From contig JAWOBP010000098.1 in assembly GCA_046484285.1 (NCBI GenBank), positions 23,345-87,344 on the forward strand: 64,000 nt of DNA, in the 5' to 3' direction. The notes below the pieces were generated by a model that had not been told where the DNA came from, made no database searches, and was given only the letters and a program-made list of their open reading frames with translations. This DNA is from Polyangia bacterium (GTDB lineage Bacteria; Myxococcota_A; Polyangia; JAAYKL01). A program made the position numbers and the translations under genes. This document shows, piece after piece, positions 191-30,988 of the stretch. Every line of letters begins with the position of its first letter. Within the stretch, counting starts at the first letter, position 1.

Positions 191-2146
191 CTAGACAGAA
201 GTTCCCCGCCAAATAGGCCTTCTGAAGACTGACAAGAGGGTGGAATTGCAAGGGAAAGAGGTTTTTTTTGGCCGGCATAAAGTTCCCATGTAATAGGTGC
301 TTTTCACTTGACAGGTACCAAAGCATGTGGTTTTATAGTTCCCATGTACATCGAAAAGGTGCCAAATCGAAACTCTCCTCCCGCAATCTTGCTGCGCCAG
401 GGCTGGAGAGAGGGCAAGAAGGTCAAGAAAAAAACGATCGCGAACCTCTCTCATTGGCCCGAGGAAAAGGTGGAGACCCTGCGTCTGCTGCTCAAAGACA
501 AGCGTCTCGCTCCCGTCGATGAGCTTTTCGAGAAAACGAAAACCGTCCACCACGGCCACGTACAGTCGGTGCTACAAGCCGTCGACAAGCTGGGACTGGA
601 CAAGCTCATCTCCGCCAAGCGCTGCCAGGAGCGCGACATCATCGTCGCCGCGATCACCGCGCGGATCTGCAAGCCGGACAGCAAACTGGCGATGAGCCGA
701 TGGTGGAAGAACACCACTTTGCCGGAGATTCTCGAGGTGGGTGACGCAGACGAAGACGACATCTACGAAGCCATGGACTGGCTTTTGGCACGACAAAAGC
801 GCATCGAGAAGAAACTGGCCAAGAGGCACCTCGAGGATGAAGACTTGGTGCTGTACGACCTGACATCGAGCTATTTCGAGGGAGTGACCTGTCCGCTGGC
901 CACGCTGGGCAAGAGCCGGGACAGGAAGCGAAATACGATGCAGGTCAACTACGGGCTGGTCTCCGACCGCCGTGGCTGTCCTGTGGCGGTGTCGGTCTTC
1001 AAGGGAAACAAGAGTGACTCCAAGACGCTGCTGCCGCAGGCCCGCCGTGTGCACGAGGACTTCGGTATCGAGCGGGTGGTGCTGGTCGGCGACCGCGGGA
1101 TGATCTCCCAAAAGCAGATCGACGTGCTGCGGGACGAAGACGGCTTCGACTGGATCACAGCGCTGAAGAGCGGCGGCATCCGCAAGCTCGTGGAGGGCGG
1201 CGCGCTACAGCTCGACCTCTTCGACGAGCGCAACCTCTTCGAGCTCGAGCACGAGGACTACCCCGGGGAACGGCTGGTGGCTTGCCGCAACCCCGTGCTG
1301 GCGCGGAAAAGGGCCTACAAGCGCGAATCCATGCTCGAAGCCACCGAGCAGGAGCTGGCGAAGATCCGCACCTCGCTGAAAAAGGGCACGCTGAAAAAGA
1401 AAGAGCGCACCAAGGACAGAATCGGCGTGCGGGTGGGCAAGGTAGTCAACAAATACAATATGGCCAAGCACATGGTGCTCCACATCAAAGACAACTCTTT
1501 CGATTTCGAGCTCAATCAGCAGAGCATCGCGGCCGAGGCCGCCCTGGACGGCATCTACATCATCCGCACCAGCCTGCCGGAAGAAAGCATGAAAGCCGAC
1601 GAAGCGGTGCGCAGCTACAAGGACCTCACCTCGGTGGAGCGGGCTTTCAAATCACTGAAAAGCATCGACCTGATGGTGCGGCCGATCCGCCACCGCACCG
1701 AGGATCGCGTGAGAGCGCACATCTTCCTGTCGATGCTGACCTACTACGTGCAGTGGCACATGCTCGAGGCGTGGCGGCCCCTGCTCTTCGCCGACGAGGA
1801 CCAGGAAGCCAAAAAAAGCCGAGACCCGGTGGCTCCGGCGAAGCGGTCGAAGAGAGCGCTGAAAAAAGCACGAACCAAGAAGCTCGATGACGGCACCGAC
1901 GTCGAAAGCTTCCGTACACTGCTCGAGCACATGAGCACGATCACACGCGACACTTGCCGCCAGCGCTGCGACGACGAGTCGTCGCGCACCTTCACAATCG
2001 ACACCACGCCCAACGAGAAGCAAAGCAGCGCCCTCAAATTGCTCGCCCAGATCCCCGTGTACCCATAGCCGCGAATTCCTTTTTCAACCAATCCCCGGGA
2101 AATCATTGGACAAGTCCGCCTTCGGAGCGGGGGAACTTCTGTCTAG
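191..2146 (+). mobile_element. Insertion sequence of the IS1634 family (IS4 superfamily) with 17-bp terminal inverted repeats
   Basis: Left end 191-210 is ctagacagaagttccccgcc. Right end 2127-2146 is gcgggggaacttctgtctag, whose reverse complement matches the left end 17/17 (ctagacagaagttcccc). One 586-aa transposase ORF lies inside. Interior GC is visibly lower than the flanking DNA. No clear target-site duplication seen. Confidence 0.7.
308..2068 (+). CDS. IS1634-family DDE transposase
   Basis: 586-aa ORF with the 'VLYDLTSSYFEG' motif typical of IS1634/IS4 transposases. It is bracketed by the inverted repeats at 191-210 and 2127-2146. Confidence 0.75.
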   Translation: MTGTKACGFIVPMYIEKVPNRNSPPAILLRQGWREGKKVKKKTIANLSHWPEEKVETLRLLLKDKRLAPVDELFEKTKTVHHGHVQSVLQAVDKLGLDKLISAKRCQERDIIVAAITARICKPDSKLAMSRWWKNTTLPEILEVGDADEDDIYEAMDWLLARQKRIEKKLAKRHLEDEDLVLYDLTSSYFEGVTCPLATLGKSRDRKRNTMQVNYGLVSDRRGCPVAVSVFKGNKSDSKTLLPQARRVHEDFGIERVVLVGDRGMISQKQIDVLRDEDGFDWITALKSGGIRKLVEGGALQLDLFDERNLFELEHEDYPGERLVACRNPVLARKRAYKRESMLEATEQELAKIRTSLKKGTLKKKERTKDRIGVRVGKVVNKYNMAKHMVLHIKDNSFDFELNQQSIAAEAALDGIYIIRTSLPEESMKADEAVRSYKDLTSVERAFKSLKSIDLMVRPIRHRTEDRVRAHIFLSMLTYYVQWHMLEAWRPLLFADEDQEAKKSRDPVAPAKRSKRALKKARTKKLDDGTDVESFRTLLEHMSTITRDTCRQRCDDESSRTFTIDTTPNEKQSSALKLLAQIPVYP

Positions 2147-15746: not shown

Positions 15747-15819
15747 GGTGGGTGTAGCTCAATGGTAGAGCACCGGACTGTGGCTCCGGTGGTTGTGGGT
15801 TCGATCCCCATCACTCACC
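15747..15819 (+). tRNA. tRNA-His (anticodon GTG)
   Basis: Cloverleaf folded by hand. Extra G-1 (15747) pairs with discriminator C. Acceptor is GTGGGTG/CACTCAC. Anticodon loop is CTGTGGC. T-loop is TTCGATC. CCA not encoded. Confidence 0.8.
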
Positions 15820-15885
15820 CCGCGGCCGGTTGACAAGGGAGATGTTGCAGACTAGAAAACCCCGCGCGCCGGCGGTGAGAATTGA

Positions 15886-15959
15886 GCGCCCGTAGCTCAG
15901 ATGGATAGAGCGTCGGACTTCGAATTCGCAGGTCGGGTGTTCGAGTCACCCCGGGCGCG
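15886..15959 (+). tRNA. tRNA-Arg (anticodon TCG)
   Basis: Acceptor GCGCCCG/CGGGCGC. D-arm GCTC-AGATGGATA-GAGC. Anticodon loop CTTCGAA. T-arm GGGTG-TTCGAGT-CACCC. Confidence 0.75.
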
Positions 15960-15973
15960 CAAGAAAAGGGGAT

Positions 15974-16047
15974 GCGCCACTAGCTCAACTAGGCAGAGCA
16001 GCGGACTCTTAATCCGGAGGTTGAAGGTTCGATTCCTTCGTGGCGCA
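15974..16047 (+). tRNA. tRNA-Lys (anticodon CTT)
   Basis: Acceptor GCGCCAC/GTGGCGC. Anticodon loop CTCTTAA. T-arm GAAGG-TTCGATT-CCTTC. Followed by CC. Confidence 0.75.
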
Positions 16048-16149
16048 CCGAGCTCTGGCCGGTCCGCTCGGTTTTCACCGGCGGACGCGATGAACGATCC
16101 AATCGATGTCGACTAGCCTACCGGCTGCTGAGAAGCTAGAGTCGTCTGC

Positions 16150-26717: not shown

Positions 26718-27227
26718 CTACCTGCCTCGGCCCTCGCGCGCGCCGGTGGCCAGCGAGCGCAGGGTCAGCAGCATCGCCAGCGCGATCCCTGCCAGCGGAG
26801 CCACCATGAACAGCACGATCAGGGCGGTGCTCGGCAGCGAGACAACCGGCTCGGCGACATTGGTCTGGTAGATCAGCTGGTAGACCGCCAGGAAGAAGAC
26901 GTCGAGCAGCAGAAGCGCGGTCTCGACGATGCCGCGTAGCTTCTCCACCGCGATCGATCTGCGCTCGGGGGTGGAAAGCCAGTAGCTCTTGCCGGGGACC
27001 GAGAGCATCCGGTCGCTCATCCGGGGCAGCCGGGCGTGCAGCAGGACGAAGGCCAGGTTGGCGGCCCCCAGCACGATCAGCCACTCGGCGACGAACAGCG
27101 AGACGCCGGTTCCGCCCCGTCCCGGCTCGGCGCCCAGTTCGACGGGCAGCTGTCCGCGGGTCGCCAGCAGGTAGCCGACGTGCACGGCCAGCGGAACGAT
27201 CCACAGCACTCGTCCGAGATGCTTCAT
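26718..27227 (-). CDS. Small 4-TM integral membrane protein, translationally coupled to the upstream FHA-protease
   Basis: Start ATG at 27225-27227 overlaps the upstream stop (ATGA). 169 aa with four hydrophobic helices. The long ORF 26718-28034 was trimmed because its first ~270 aa are Arg-rich shadow-frame sequence. Confidence 0.6.
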   Translation of the reverse strand: MKHLGRVLWIVPLAVHVGYLLATRGQLPVELGAEPGRGGTGVSLFVAEWLIVLGAANLAFVLLHARLPRMSDRMLSVPGKSYWLSTPERRSIAVEKLRGIVETALLLLDVFFLAVYQLIYQTNVAEPVVSLPSTALIVLFMVAPLAGIALAMLLTLRSLATGAREGRGR

Positions 27228-28516
27228 CTGGGCTGCGGATATCGCGCCCCGATCGACGGGAAGAGCGGTTGCAACAGGTCGATCCTCATTCCAAAGTTGT
27301 AGCCGGCCAGCGCCTGGCCGTTCTCGATGTATCCTCCCGAGTTGATCCCGATCACGTAGCCGGCCGAGTCGAAGATCGGGCTGCCCGAGGTTCCGCTCGA
27401 GGAGAAGGCGGAGTGCTGGAGCAGGGTGTTTTTTCCGAAGTCCCCCAGCTTCTGGTCGAAGCCGGTCACGCGCCCAATATCGCCCTTGACGAAGGTCGCC
27501 TCGGGCGCGTTCTCGCGGTTGAGCCTGCCGGGAAAGCCGTAGAGGAAGACCGGCACGCCGGGCGCCACGTGCGAGAGCTGGGAGGGCGGAGCGATCGAGC
27601 AGATGTGCTGCAAGCGGGTCGCGACGCGGACCAGGCCCACGTCGGGGGAGATGCGCCCCTCCTGGTAGCCGGGGTGCGCCACGGACTGCACGACGCGGTA
27701 ACGGGCGTTGGGCACGCCGTTCATCAGCGCCCAGACCGAGCCGAAGTGCCGCCGGCCCGCCAGCAAGCAGTGGGCGTTGGTCGCCAGCAGGTCCGGCCCG
27801 ACGGCGAAGGCGGTGCAGTAGCCGTCGAGCTGGGCGCTGCCGAGCGGGCTGGGTGCCGGGCTGCCGGCCAGCAGGAAGACCGCGTAGCGATTGCGGGCGG
27901 CGATGCTGCCGCCGGCCGCGTCGCCGTAGCTGACCTGCTGGATGACGTTGACCGCGCTCGGTTTCTGCCAGATGTACCAGGCCGTGATCGCGACGCCGAT
28001 CACCGCCAGCGAGACCGCTGCCAGCACAATCCATTTCAGTCGCGAGGAGGTGCTGCGCACCTTGCGGTCGACCAGCGCCTCGAAGTACTCGGTGGACTTG
28101 CTGGTTCCCGAGACGCGCCCCAGCCCGGCCTGGGCCAACGCCTGCTGGATCAGCATCCCCACCGTGCGCTGGCCGTACTTCTTCTCATCGGGCGGGCGCT
28201 TCTCGGCCGCGGTGATCTCGACGCGGAACGCGGGACCGTCGCGTCCGAGCCGCACGGTTTCGCTCGGCTCCAGGCGCCGCGACTCGATCCGCTCGCCCTC
28301 GACCCAGGTGCCGTTGGTCGAGCCCAGATCCACGATCCGAGCCGTGTCGCCCTCGGCGCGGATCTCGGCGTGGCTGCCCGAGACAAGGCCGTCTTCCGGC
28401 CTGTCGAAGACCAGGTCGTTGCCGGGAGCGCGACCGAGCCGGATGCGCCGCTCGTCCGCGAAGCTCCGCCTGTTGCCGTCGCGCGCACCGCCGATATGGA
28501 CGACCGTCAGCTTCAC
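27224..28516 (-). CDS. FHA-domain / transmembrane / trypsin-like serine protease fusion
   Basis: N-terminal FHA motifs (GRAPGNDLVFD...VSGSHAEI...STNGTWVNG-like STNGTWVEGERI). One TM (LKWIVLAAVSLAVIGVAITAWYIW). C-terminal chymotrypsin-fold protease with His (TNAHC), Asp (DVGLVRV) and Ser (GTSGSPIF). Confidence 0.75.
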   Translation of the reverse strand: MKLTVVHIGGARDGNRRSFADERRIRLGRAPGNDLVFDRPEDGLVSGSHAEIRAEGDTARIVDLGSTNGTWVEGERIESRRLEPSETVRLGRDGPAFRVEITAAEKRPPDEKKYGQRTVGMLIQQALAQAGLGRVSGTSKSTEYFEALVDRKVRSTSSRLKWIVLAAVSLAVIGVAITAWYIWQKPSAVNVIQQVSYGDAAGGSIAARNRYAVFLLAGSPAPSPLGSAQLDGYCTAFAVGPDLLATNAHCLLAGRRHFGSVWALMNGVPNARYRVVQSVAHPGYQEGRISPDVGLVRVATRLQHICSIAPPSQLSHVAPGVPVFLYGFPGRLNRENAPEATFVKGDIGRVTGFDQKLGDFGKNTLLQHSAFSSSGTSGSPIFDSAGYVIGINSGGYIENGQALAGYNFGMRIDLLQPLFPSIGARYPQPR

Positions 28517-28633: not shown

Positions 28634-30988
28634 TCAGCGCCCCCTGCGGCGCGTGAATCGGCTGCTGCCGACCAGGAGCACGACTCCCAGGCCGAGAGCG
28701 CCGATCGACATCCAATCGAACGGGAGCTCTGACCTCTCGGAGCCGCGGCCATTACTTTCGATTCTTTCCATACGTTGCTCGAGGCTGTCGACCCGTGAGC
28801 TGAGAGCGGCGTTCTGCACGCGCAGGTCGAGATTCTCTCGCTCGAGCTTTTCGTTCAGCCCTATTATCGCGGCCAGCGCCACGCCGTCGGCGTCGACGGT
28901 TGCGATCGACAGCTCGTCGTCGCCTAGCCCGAAGGCGGGACCGAAGTCCTGGGCGACAGGTCCCATGTGGCGTACTCCGTCAGGTTCCGATTTGTATTTC
29001 CAGGTCGTGACAGGTATCGCCGCGAGCTTGTCGAGCACCTTCGAGGTGTCGACGCGCTCGAAGCTTTCCTTCTTGTTCCTGTCGCTGACGTTGTTCCAGG
29101 ATCCGCCGCCGGAGCCCACGTATACACCCGAGGACATGGCGCTGTTCGTGTAGAAGTAGACTCCTCCGGCGGCGCGTGCGATGAATCTGTTTGGATTTCC
29201 GCAGTTGACCGTGGAGGTCGTGTCGCTCTGGTCGGACCAGACCCAGCAGCCTTTCTCTTCGGCCCTGGCTCGGTAGCCGTGGGCGAAGGAAGAGGTGCCG
29301 CTAGCGAGGTTGCCGTATCCGCCCGGGACCGTGGCCCAATCACCACTGTAGCACGAGTTGTACTGTCCGCCGCCGATCGTGGAGTAGGTTCCACTCATGA
29401 TTTCGTTGGTGTCTCCGCCCAGAATGGAATTGTACGTTCCCTCGTTCTCGACGTAGTTGTCATTCCCGCCAGCGACCACGGAGAAGTTCGATTGGTAGAC
29501 GGTGTTGTCGTAGCCACCACCCACCGTGCCGCCGATGCCGCCGGCGCGGTTGGAAAAACCGCCTCCCACGGTCGCGTACATGCCGTCGGCGCGGTTGCTG
29601 TCTCCGCCGCCCACGGAGGCGTACGACTGAGCTGCGGGATTCGAGTCGCCGTCTCCGGCCTCGTTTCCGGAGCCGCCGGCCACCACGCCGAAGTCGTCGA
29701 AAACGACATTGGGATACTCCTGGGTGGAGTTCACCCAGTAACCGCCTCCGCCGATGAATGCGGACACGGCGCCATCGCTCGAGCGGTTGCCCTCGTAGCC
29801 CCCGATGTAGGTCGACCCCTGGTTCGAGTCGTTGTGCGGTATGTACCTCGCGGCGGTGAATCCACCGGCCTGGAATCTGAGCGTGGTGTCGTCCGTCGTG
29901 CCGATCGCGTCGAACGACGGGTTGGTGCCGCTGTTGCCGGACAGCGCCCAGTAGAGGTCGCTGTTGTGCGTGTCGCAGTCGCTGCAGTTCTCCGGCAGCG
30001 AGGTGCAGCTACCGTCGCCCGAGAGGTACTGGCCGGCGGTGCAAATCGTCTGGGCGTTGGTGTCGGGCGGCGTAGAGCAGGTAAATGAGCCCGAGGTGGG
30101 ATTGATGCTCGAGACGAACTCGCCGGTGTTGCACGCACCGCTGAGAGAGACCTGGATCAGATCGGTATCCACGGAGAACTCGTCGCTCGCCAAGTCGAGC
30201 CCGTAGCCGGCCGTGTAGGTAGCGCCGGTGTCCTCCGCAGTGCAGCTGATCACACCCGACGCGCTGATGTTCGACACGAAGTAGCCGTTGCCGCAAGGTC
30301 CGCCGCTGATAACCGGCGAGTACTCGTCGGCGTGGTCGTGGTTGCCTTCGGCCACCGTGCCTGCGGTGTTGCCGAAGACCACCGACAGCTCCGGATTGCC
30401 GGCCACCCAGTCCTTGTCGAGGCCCGCGCCTGCGTAGACGTCGGTGAGCGTGCCGCCGTCCGCCCCCGTGCTGGTGACGTCCACGTCGCAGACAGGGCCG
30501 CCGTCCGGTTCCCAACCGCGCAGGAACTGGTCGCCGCCGCAAGAAAAATCGAGGGTTGGTTGGATGTCCTCCGCGACCATGTCTCCGATCTGTCGGCAGA
30601 AGCGCGCCTCCTCGGCGAAGGGGACGGAGGCCAGCCGGATTCGGTCCATCTCCTCGTCGGCCCCCACGGTGATGCCGAGCCACAGCTCGGGGTAGGGCAG
30701 CAGATCCTCGAACAGCAAGGAATTGAGCGAACCGAGGTAGACGGTGAAAAAGCCGTCCAAGACATCCACCTGGTTGGATCCGCTGTAGAGCTCCGACCAG
30801 ATCGGGCCTGCGCCCGTTTCTGTGTCGTAGATAGCGAACCGGATGTCGACCCAGCCGTCGATCGTGTCGCCGAATTCGTCGGTCAACACGCCCTGGACCG
30901 GAATCAGGTCCGGCACCTCGGCGGCGGCGCCGGTCACACGGCAGACAGCCAAACCCAGGATCGCTGCGCTGATGGCAAGCCTTCTCAT
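28634..30988 (-). CDS. Fibre-like secreted protein with Gly/Asn-rich ~14-aa repeats and C-terminal Peptidase_S74 (intramolecular chaperone auto-processing) domain followed by a TM anchor
   Basis: Signal peptide. Repeats of the form ..VGGG.SN.A.G..A. C-terminal block NNVSDRNKKESFERVDTSKVLDKLAAIPVTTWKYKSEPDGVRHMGPVAQDFGPAFGLG...AIIGLNEKLERENLDLRVQ matches the S74 tail-spike chaperone signature (S-D-x-x-x-K). Ends with a hydrophobic helix plus RRRGR. Confidence 0.75.
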   Translation of the reverse strand: MRRLAISAAILGLAVCRVTGAAAEVPDLIPVQGVLTDEFGDTIDGWVDIRFAIYDTETGAGPIWSELYSGSNQVDVLDGFFTVYLGSLNSLLFEDLLPYPELWLGITVGADEEMDRIRLASVPFAEEARFCRQIGDMVAEDIQPTLDFSCGGDQFLRGWEPDGGPVCDVDVTSTGADGGTLTDVYAGAGLDKDWVAGNPELSVVFGNTAGTVAEGNHDHADEYSPVISGGPCGNGYFVSNISASGVISCTAEDTGATYTAGYGLDLASDEFSVDTDLIQVSLSGACNTGEFVSSINPTSGSFTCSTPPDTNAQTICTAGQYLSGDGSCTSLPENCSDCDTHNSDLYWALSGNSGTNPSFDAIGTTDDTTLRFQAGGFTAARYIPHNDSNQGSTYIGGYEGNRSSDGAVSAFIGGGGYWVNSTQEYPNVVFDDFGVVAGGSGNEAGDGDSNPAAQSYASVGGGDSNRADGMYATVGGGFSNRAGGIGGTVGGGYDNTVYQSNFSVVAGGNDNYVENEGTYNSILGGDTNEIMSGTYSTIGGGQYNSCYSGDWATVPGGYGNLASGTSSFAHGYRARAEEKGCWVWSDQSDTTSTVNCGNPNRFIARAAGGVYFYTNSAMSSGVYVGSGGGSWNNVSDRNKKESFERVDTSKVLDKLAAIPVTTWKYKSEPDGVRHMGPVAQDFGPAFGLGDDELSIATVDADGVALAAIIGLNEKLERENLDLRVQNAALSSRVDSLEQRMERIESNGRGSERSELPFDWMSIGALGLGVVLLVGSSRFTRRRGR

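Follow-up and report, generated by a model that had tools for sequence, protein, structure and literature searches.

A chromosomal S74-terminated fibre protein of a Polyangia bacterium with a predicted C-terminal membrane tether

What is the role of a predicted transmembrane (TM) helix and an Arg-rich tail placed after the S74 chaperone domain of a bacterial fibre protein? The question is raised by a gene in a 64,000-nucleotide stretch of contig JAWOBP010000098.1 from a Polyangia bacterium, called the window hereafter. The open reading frame (ORF) 28634-30988 of the minus strand codes for a fibre protein of 784 residues, the C-terminus of which reads ...ELPFDWMSIGALGLGVVLLVGSSRFTRRRGR before the stop codon. 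It starts with an ATG preceded by a GGGAG ribosome-binding site 7-8 nt on the 5' side, and its GC content at third codon positions (0.83) matches that of the real genes of this 65% GC window. An identical protein is found at NCBI under the name 'MAG: tail fiber domain-containing protein [Polyangia bacterium]'. The answer that we favour, with fair confidence, is that the gene codes for a secreted, probably trimeric surface fibre similar to the MAT fibres of Bdellovibrio, with a membrane-anchored S74 chaperone that would hold the fibre until it is folded and has cut itself free.

The S74 domain and its predicted tether

In the C-terminal part of the protein, the Pfam model PF13884 (Peptidase_S74) covers residues 635-684 and scores 41.1 bits (gathering cutoff 22), and the fibre protein also matches tail-fibre families of the PHROGs collection (phrog_1980, E 4e-6). 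The domain opens with the motif S635-D-R-N-K-K640. When residues 602-784, the C-terminal module, are aligned with the tails of 35 homologues (alignment A1, 36 sequences), Ser635, Asp636, Lys640 and Gln680 are invariant, both in tethered and in untethered sequences. The profile of this alignment was compared with all solved structures, among which only the MYRF ICA (7dc3, E 1.5e-4) gave a significant match. In this match, the SD...K motif of the fibre aligns with the catalytic motif of MYRF, (S->A)DLRAK, which reads ADLRAK in the 7dc3 chain. The AlphaFold2 model of residues 602-784 has a mean predicted local distance difference test score (pLDDT) of 79 and is composed of short strands, the S74 core, a long helix, a linker and a terminal helix. 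Foldseek searches with this model returned the MYRF ICA 7dc3 first, with a probability of 1.00, followed by the endosialidase chaperone 3gw6 (0.94); the domain, which is trimeric, was modelled as a monomer, and the TM-scores are modest (0.34-0.43). Since the model score, the catalytic residues and the fold all fit, we assign the domain to the S74/ICA family, with a scissile bond predicted between Asn634 and Ser635. A reading made from the DNA letters alone (the sequence-only reading) had proposed an S74 domain with an intact Ser/Lys dyad, and had quoted the S-D-R-N-K-K motif, the hydrophobic helix and the Arg cluster; all of these are borne out.

The TM status of homologues was called by a simple rule of hydrophobicity and charge, which asks for a hydrophobic stretch devoid of charges with two or more Arg or Lys residues after it. 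Among the 120 best homologues, 107 have a recognizable SDxxxK motif, located ~90-200 residues from the C-terminus, and the module made of S74, coiled coil, TM helix and basic tail is found in 53 of these 107. The closest full-length homologue, P0004 (40% identity), also has the tail. A profile search of 1.84 billion cluster representatives collected 47,665 relatives at E≤1e-3, of which 10,301 reach E≤1e-30. The tail is present in 83 of the 145 new top cluster representatives, 68 of which also have a signal-like N-terminus.

Altogether, 141 distinct tethered homologues were examined. Their post-helix segments have a median length of 9 residues and contain on average 3.9 Lys and Arg versus 0.65 Asp and Glu, a clear positive-inside signature. 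The helix is rich in Gly (~3.2 per 15 residues), and the equivalent of the linker in homologues is rich in Ser, Ala, Pro and Gly. The segment preceding the TM helix is weakly conserved, with a slight tendency towards Pro, Leu, Gly and Trp (LPxGW). Because P0004 and these 141 distinct homologues share the tail, its occurrence in the Polyangia protein is more than a chance event. In many homologues, both tethered and untethered, the C-terminal tip contains Gly-Gly (...KGGxQ, ...GGGR, ...GGER; P0003-P0120, L005-L084). A Gly-Gly pair is found within the last five residues of 72 of the 141 tethered tails; the Polyangia protein ends in RRRGR.

To describe the distribution of the tail, we used a scan of one genome per species, which yielded at least 596 relatives. 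The best 80 of them were classified, and 20 of the 79 complete ORFs in this set, about a quarter, have the tail. It was found in 15/20 Chloroflexota loci, 2/3 loci of Dyadobacter, 1/2 of Polyangiaceae, the single locus of Rhodothermales and the single locus of a metagenome-assembled genome (MAG) labelled Thermoplasmatota. It is absent from the ~24 loci of Planctomycetota/Verrucomicrobiota, the 5 loci of Longimicrobium and the 7 loci of Proteobacteria in the same set. Chloroflexota are thus enriched in tethered forms (15/20 versus 5/59 other cellular loci, p 3e-8). None of the 56 relatives on IMG/VR viral contigs has a TM tail (cellular versus viral, Fisher p 9e-6), and none of 24 matches in phage genomes reaches past the S74 core. 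The distance from the catalytic Ser to the C-terminus is 135-185 residues in tethered cellular proteins and typically 76-112 residues in viral ones. In a tree of S74 cores with 221 tips, the TM trait is clustered yet polyphyletic, requiring 24 Fitch steps, whereas shuffles need 59.5 on average and never fewer than 46. This pattern fits a modular add-on, and on this tree the tail behaves as a module that would have been gained or lost repeatedly.

Three further observations concern individual relatives. A tethered S74 fibre gene is found on a 7 kb contig (JBFJXH010000086.1, locus L037) binned to the MAG of a Thermoplasmatota archaeon; its archaeal placement could be due to mis-binning or to transfer into the archaeon. 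At two Chloroflexota loci on independent contigs (L003, 1-5809, and L004, 265-4379), a gene for a regulator of ~1210 residues with BTAD, AAA_16 and TPR domains and an ORF of 74-75 residues lie ahead of the gene for the tethered fibre. The two small ORFs have a common motif, F-[VL]-[VI]-R-[IL]-W, and together with the regulator they may form a dedicated regulatory unit. Lastly, the polypeptides of several relatives contain two or three S74 modules each: P0121 (950 residues), P0122 (1221 residues), P0131, P0132 and P0264 (up to 4928 residues). In P0121 the SDxxxK motifs are at residues 483 and 825. The sequences of these multi-S74 relatives suggest polyproteins from which two or more segments of fibre could be released.

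A mosaic fibre and its genomic environment

The orthologous locus of a related metagenome, L141, codes for a fibre protein (P0002) that matches residues 1-310 of the Polyangia fibre at 72% identity. The shared stretch comprises the signal peptide, the N-terminal domain and the first Cys modules. Past residue 310, P0002 has extra Cys modules and then an unrelated tip of ~360 residues that harbours neither S74 nor a TM segment. The surroundings are conserved between L141 and the window, with a TPR protein of 1769 residues (68.5% identity), a protein of 376 residues (53.7%), a protease combining FHA and trypsin domains (52.9%), a TPR protein of 727 residues (54.8%) and the C-terminal domain of the small lipoprotein encoded upstream of the fibre (49%). 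As L141 retains residues 1-310, the lipoprotein and the flanking genes with a fibre devoid of S74 and TM helix, export and attachment of the fibre appear to be independent of the TM helix. Furthermore, S74 and the TM helix are swapped together at the tip between the two proteins, and they can therefore be regarded as a swappable cassette on a mosaic fibre. This comparison of sequences indicates that the tether belongs to the S74 cassette as an accessory and does not serve to export the fibre.

The features of the fibre protein and its surroundings are listed in Table 1. P0004 has an equivalent signal peptide, which ends just before a conserved E/G-[VI]-P-[DE]-L-I-P-V-Q-G start, and an N-terminal hydrophobic, signal-like region is found in 101 of the 120 best homologues. 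The signal peptide of the fibre is predicted to be cleaved. In an alignment of 30 N-terminal domains (A2), columns of Gln, Gly, Phe, Gly and Leu are invariant. The AlphaFold2 model of this domain (pLDDT 88) is all-beta with one additional helix, and a search of BFVD with it gave generic beta-sandwich matches only. The shaft that follows contains the Cys pairs 150/167, 232/249, 286/304, 316/328 and 335/338.

The Gly/Asn-rich repeats of the sequence-only reading are real, with a beta-roll as their probable fold; their period is 15 residues rather than the 14 that it gave, with autocorrelation peaks at lags of 15, 16 and 31. In phmmer searches the repeats matched the head of UspA1 (3pr7) with an E value of 1e-11 in a region of high compositional bias, and the beta-roll of an ice-binding protein (3ult) weakly (E 0.08). 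The corresponding models PF21300 (LbR_Ice_bind) and PF18792 (UspA1_rep) are present in fibre homologues. The stalk preceding the predicted cleavage site consists of three short strands in the AlphaFold2 model; its counterpart is the triple-beta-helix stalk upstream of the ICA in 7dc3 (PMC8326128). After the S74 core, the coiled coil shows heptad-like LExR repeats and is longer than in viral S74 forms. The terminal helix spans residues 760-777 in the model.

Table 1. Features of the fibre protein and of its neighbourhood (positions are those of the window)
Feature	Residues	Positions	Strand	Basis or description
DDE transposase		308-2068	+	left end of the window, far from the fibre locus
tRNA-His/Arg/Lys cluster		15748-16049	+	far from the fibre locus
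FHA-trypsin protein		27224-28516	-	N-terminal FHA, central hydrophobic segment, C-terminal trypsin-like protease; directly downstream of the fibre gene
Promoter-like site of the FHA-trypsin gene		28575-28547		
Stop codon of the fibre ORF		28634-28636	-	
Basic tail, predicted cytoplasmic	777-784	28637..28660	-	RFTRRRGR; five Arg in 8 residues
Hydrophobic TM helix	759-776	28661..28714	-	WMSIGALGLGVVLLVGSS; Kyte-Doolittle 1.9 over 17 residues, no charge
Flexible linker	748-758	28715..28747	-	GRGSERSELPFD; low pLDDT in AlphaFold2
Long helix / coiled coil	700-747	28748..28891	-	AlphaFold2 helix, fragment positions 99-146, block pLDDT 86-97
Peptidase_S74 / ICA core	635-699	28892..29086	-	Pfam, alignment, Foldseek
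Codon of catalytic Lys640	640	29069-29071	-	
Codon of catalytic Ser635	635	29084-29086	-	
Pre-cleavage beta stalk	601-634	29087..29188	-	NRFIARAAGGVYFYT...SWNNV; conserved in alignment A1
Gly/Asn-rich beta-roll repeats	346-600	29189..29953	-	period ~15 residues
Shaft of Cys-bracketed modules	126-345	29954..30613	-	ends in a C-x-x-C-D-x-H-N junction
N-terminal beta-sandwich domain	24-125	30614..30919	-	...IPVQGVLTD...; alignment and AlphaFold2
Signal peptide	1-23	30920..30988	-	MRRLAISAAILGLAVCRVTGAAA, followed by EV; basic n-region, 12-residue hydrophobic core, AAA at -3..-1
Small lipoprotein, 142 aa		31009-31437	-	lipobox ACGCS, acidic D-x repeat spacer, C-terminal domain of ~45 aa
Giant lipoprotein, 1336 aa		31593-35603	-	paralogous to the next
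Giant lipoprotein, 2476 aa		35734-43164	-	

To describe the genetic environment, nearly all the likely genes of the window were scanned against Pfam. These scans detected housekeeping, regulatory and envelope genes, including a TonB-dependent receptor with a TonB/ExbB/ExbD set, a response regulator, a MarR regulator, polyprenyl synthetase, formiminotransferase-cyclodeaminase, phosphotransacetylase, TPR proteins, Lon, ClpX, ClpP, trigger factor and Ffh. No phage genes were found in these 64 kb, and neither were a sortase or an exosortase. The sequence-only reading had placed the gene on the chromosome outside any prophage, as these scans confirm across the whole window, and had called the product a domesticated fibre. 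It does not belong to a prophage, but it is no special case either, as the family of cellular S74 fibres to which it belongs is very large (the 47,665 cluster representatives mentioned above).

A gap of 20 bp separates the gene of the small lipoprotein from the ATG of the fibre gene downstream of it. The pair recurs with a gap of 14 bp at locus L001 (9501-9986) and of 17 bp at L141 (5013-5528), and the C-terminal domain of the lipoprotein is 49% identical at both (E 5e-9 and 2.5e-10, respectively). The pair is kept whether or not the tip of the fibre consists of S74 and the TM helix. Speculatively, the small lipoprotein might be a cell-surface anchor or receptor for the N-terminal domain of the fibre. 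The small ORFs that precede the Chloroflexota fibre genes were considered as homologues of this lipoprotein and rejected, as tblastn detected no similarity. We also considered the FHA-trypsin protease as a partner of the S74-TM cassette. We discarded it, as it is absent from L001, is encoded at L141 (10625-12070) beside a fibre devoid of S74 and has a promoter-like site of its own.

The two giant lipoproteins encoded further upstream are 39% identical over ~1190 residues. Both have a lipobox, DTDT repeats, Cys-rich modules and Gly/Asn-rich repeats, and neither has a Pfam match at E≤1e-3. Both are missing from L141, and we thus consider them to be a variable insertion beside the fibre operon.

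Proposed mechanism and alternatives

Based on these features, the following sequence of events can be proposed. The signal peptide would route the chain through the Sec system. The helix 759-776 would then stop the transfer and leave the Arg-rich tail in the cytoplasm, and this would yield a type-I precursor with the whole fibre outside, as predicted from the sequence and from the statistics of the family. Three tethered chains would meet in the plane of the membrane, where the ICA and the extended coiled coil would trimerise; beta-roll and S74 modules both form trimers in proteins already characterised. The stalk and the beta-roll would fold on this template from the C- to the N-terminus, a mode of folding established for endosialidase and the MYRF ICA. 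The Ser635/Lys640 dyad, whose residues are conserved, would then cut between Asn634 and Ser635. The mature fibre, residues 24-634, would be freed, and a stub comprising the chaperone, the coiled coil and the TM helix (residues 635-784) would stay in the membrane. Finally, the fibre might be kept on the cell by its N-terminal beta-sandwich, possibly through the co-encoded small lipoprotein, which is a speculative step.

A purpose for the tether is suggested by its taxonomic distribution. Chloroflexota are generally considered to have no outer membrane, and in such cells singly exported chains would diffuse away before trimerising. The bias of the tail towards Chloroflexota therefore suggests that the tether keeps the chains together.

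Several points weigh against this mechanism. Cleavage, membrane insertion, topology and trimerisation are properties that we infer for this fibre. The host is a diderm, as a member of the Polyangia, and release at the inner membrane would leave the fibre in the periplasm. The rationale based on monoderm cells suits Chloroflexota better than the Polyangia genome. In the S74 tree, the cores nearest to that of the Polyangia protein are mostly those of untethered forms, plus P0004. In addition, a viral use of the tether is possible, as the gene of one tethered homologue, P0030, lies ~3.5 kb from the head module of a prophage in a 3.68 Mb genome. There, a capsid-protease fusion and a large terminase are encoded on the opposite strand (locus L002, 1736-6446 and 10001-12427).

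Alternatively, the protein might be a permanently anchored adhesin, held in the inner membrane or spanning the periplasm, with S74 acting only as a trimerisation module. The TM helix and the coiled coil would indeed form a stable trimeric stalk, and the cleavage of MYRF can reportedly be restrained by partner proteins (PMC12803276). Nevertheless, the invariance of Ser635, Asp636 and Lys640 in 36/36 sequences is unexpected if catalysis is dispensable, the S74 domains that have been tested do cleave, including one of a bacterial chromosomal protein (PMC10769870), and a fibre held in the inner membrane could not reach the surface of a diderm cell. We consider a permanent anchor unlikely.

The C-terminal helix and Arg cluster might also represent a PEP-CTERM, MYXO-CTERM or LPXTG signal, cut and attached by an exosortase, a myxosortase or a sortase, and the sequence-only reading had likened them to a PEP-CTERM signal. 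They have the look of a sorting signal, with a short segment containing Pro and Gly, a Gly-rich helix and an Arg cluster, and MYXO-CTERM is in use in the phylum of the host. The whole protein and ten C-terminal tails (that of the Polyangia fibre and those of nine homologues) were scanned against NCBIfam. The homologous tails gave weak matches to the MYXO-CTERM, LPXTG, NPXTG, PEP-CTERM, PFE-CTERM and Loki-CTERM models, all of them below the curated cutoffs, and the Polyangia tail had no match at E≤10. The whole Polyangia protein matched none of the CTERM and LPXTG models either. For MYXO-CTERM (TIGR03901) the best homologous tail reached 19.0 bits for a cutoff of 20; the Polyangia tail has no Cys. 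For LPXTG (TIGR01167) two homologous tails scored 13-15 bits for a cutoff of 15.9, and the Polyangia tail contains ELPFDW. As for PEP-CTERM (TIGR02595-type), it lacks Pro-Glu-Pro. Sub-cutoff matches scattered over six unrelated models point to a generic similarity of TM-plus-basic segments. Furthermore, the positions preceding the TM helix are weakly conserved over the 141 tails, with no PEP, LPXTG or Cys signature in the Polyangia protein, and no sortase-like gene was found in the window nor among the genes listed for five homologue loci that we inspected. Lastly, the S74 cut would part the fibre from the signal, so that sorting would act only on the discarded chaperone. The PEP-CTERM interpretation was thus abandoned, and a sorting signal of any of these types is improbable.

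That the protein is a tail fibre of a phage or tailocin, or a remnant thereof, with a hydrophobic C-terminus as a viral trait unrelated to tethering in a host membrane, is very improbable: although S74 is a classic module of phage tail spikes, the protein matches PHROGs tail-fibre families and P0030 is encoded near capsid and terminase genes, there are no phage genes in the 64 kb, a Sec signal peptide precedes a conserved cellular N-terminal domain in the protein, its locus is syntenic with that of a related genome (L141), and the tail is missing from all the viral relatives and phage-genome matches searched.

A secreted fibre held by its chaperone until folded and cut thus remains the reading that we prefer. 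The idea of tether and release, already part of the sequence-only reading, has gained comparative support from the conservation of the tail across phyla, its basic nature and its absence from the viral versions searched, and it has an experimentally proven analogue in MYRF, which the sequence-only reading had not named; for the Polyangia fibre the cleavage step is a prediction.

Significance and comparison with known systems

The Polyangia protein belongs to the known cellular mosaic fibres that end in S74. The variant with a membrane tether, i.e. a bacterial arrangement of S74 followed by a TM helix, was not found described in the open-access papers that were searched. Among the known S74 chaperones, those of phage spikes, Bdellovibrio fibres and MYRF, membrane anchoring is known only in MYRF, where it serves as a release switch (PMC3742443, PMC3742440). 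We tentatively extend our proposal to a widespread, hitherto unrecognised and sortase-independent S74 cassette that holds a fibre until it is folded and then releases it by self-cleavage. This cassette would have a cellular origin, chiefly in Chloroflexota, from a phage chaperone, would have converged with MYRF and would work with the lipoprotein as a receptor for the N-terminal domain. We regard this broader scenario as possible rather than probable.

Should the bacterial tether function in the proposed way, the trimerise-then-release logic of MYRF is also bacterial, with the opposite topology, which would offer a simple prokaryotic model. It would explain how obligate trimers assemble after Sec export from singly exported chains, chiefly in cells without an outer membrane. 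The cassette would also be portable, for the display or the release of engineered trimers, and many database entries named 'tail fiber domain-containing protein' would be probable adhesins with a defined maturation step.

The chaperones of phage endosialidases, tail spikes and the T5 fibre (Schulz et al. 2010, PDB 3GW6) share the domain family, the fold and the catalytic motif with the Polyangia protein and are cleaved off once the trimer is folded. The phage proteins differ from it in being cytoplasmic, in lacking a signal peptide and in having only a short stretch beyond the S74 core. The trimeric autotransporter adhesins of the YadA/UspA1 type resemble it in the Gly/Asn-rich beta-roll repeats of their heads, and some homologues of the fibre are named 'trimeric autotransporter adhesin' by JGI. 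The C-terminal beta-barrel of the YadA type was not detected in the Polyangia protein (no YadA_anchor match), which ends in S74 and an alpha-helical TM segment.

Closer in overall design are the MAT (mosaic adhesive trimeric) fibres of Bdellovibrio bacteriovorus, 13/21 of which, all chromosomal, end in S74 (Caulton et al. 2024, PMC10769870). The mutation S782A blocks the processing of Bd3182, which amounts to S74 autocleavage of a chromosomal bacterial fibre, and MAT-like proteins are listed in Myxococcales and other phyla (Table S3 of PMC10769870). Like the Polyangia fibre, the MAT proteins of the S74 subgroup, e.g. Bd3182, are chromosomal rather than phage-encoded and have swapped tips. In both types, a signal peptide and a beta-rich N-terminal domain precede a long fibre, which is followed by an S74 domain with SDxxxK; their N-terminal domains, of ~130 residues in MAT and ~100 residues here, are matched by position only. 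The Polyangia protein departs from MAT after the S74 domain, where an extended coiled coil leads to a TM helix and a basic tail; the word 'transmembrane' does not occur in the text and supplement of the MAT paper (PMC10769870). The shaft differs too, with Cys-bracketed modules and a beta-roll similar to those of UspA1 and ice-binding proteins. A surface element that binds the N-terminal domain of the fibre has been proposed by the MAT authors, and for this open point of their study, what that domain binds on the cell (PMC10769870), the small lipoprotein is a candidate.

The closest analogue of the tether is found in eukaryotes, in the membrane-bound transcription factors MYRF and MrfA. Both combine an ICA with a Ser-Lys dyad, a coiled-coil helix and a single TM helix, like the Polyangia protein, and the MYRF ICA 7dc3 is the best match among solved structures both by sequence profile and by fold. 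In MYRF the ICA precedes the TM segment, and autocleavage, which depends on trimerisation, releases an N-terminal trimer, with the C-terminal part staying in the membrane (PMC3742443, PMC3742440, PMC3828593, PMC8326128). We considered whether MYRF inherited its ICA and TM helix from tethered bacterial fibres and rejected this possibility: in a comparison with models of the S74 core, the hidden Markov model of tethered forms scored the MYRF ICA fragment no higher (17 bits) than those of untethered (27) and viral (25) forms, in what is a crude test with a short domain. As the MYRF ICA is not closer to the tethered group, the order of ICA and TM helix shared by MYRF and the bacterial fibres is apparently a case of convergence. 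The topologies are opposite, since the N-terminal part and the ICA of MYRF are cytosolic, with no signal peptide, and the fibre and the ICA of the Polyangia protein are predicted to be outside. The Ndt80-like DNA-binding domain has no Pfam match in the Polyangia protein, the N-terminus of which is made of a signal peptide and fibre domains. MYRF carries a DNA-binding domain as its cargo, the Polyangia protein an adhesive fibre.

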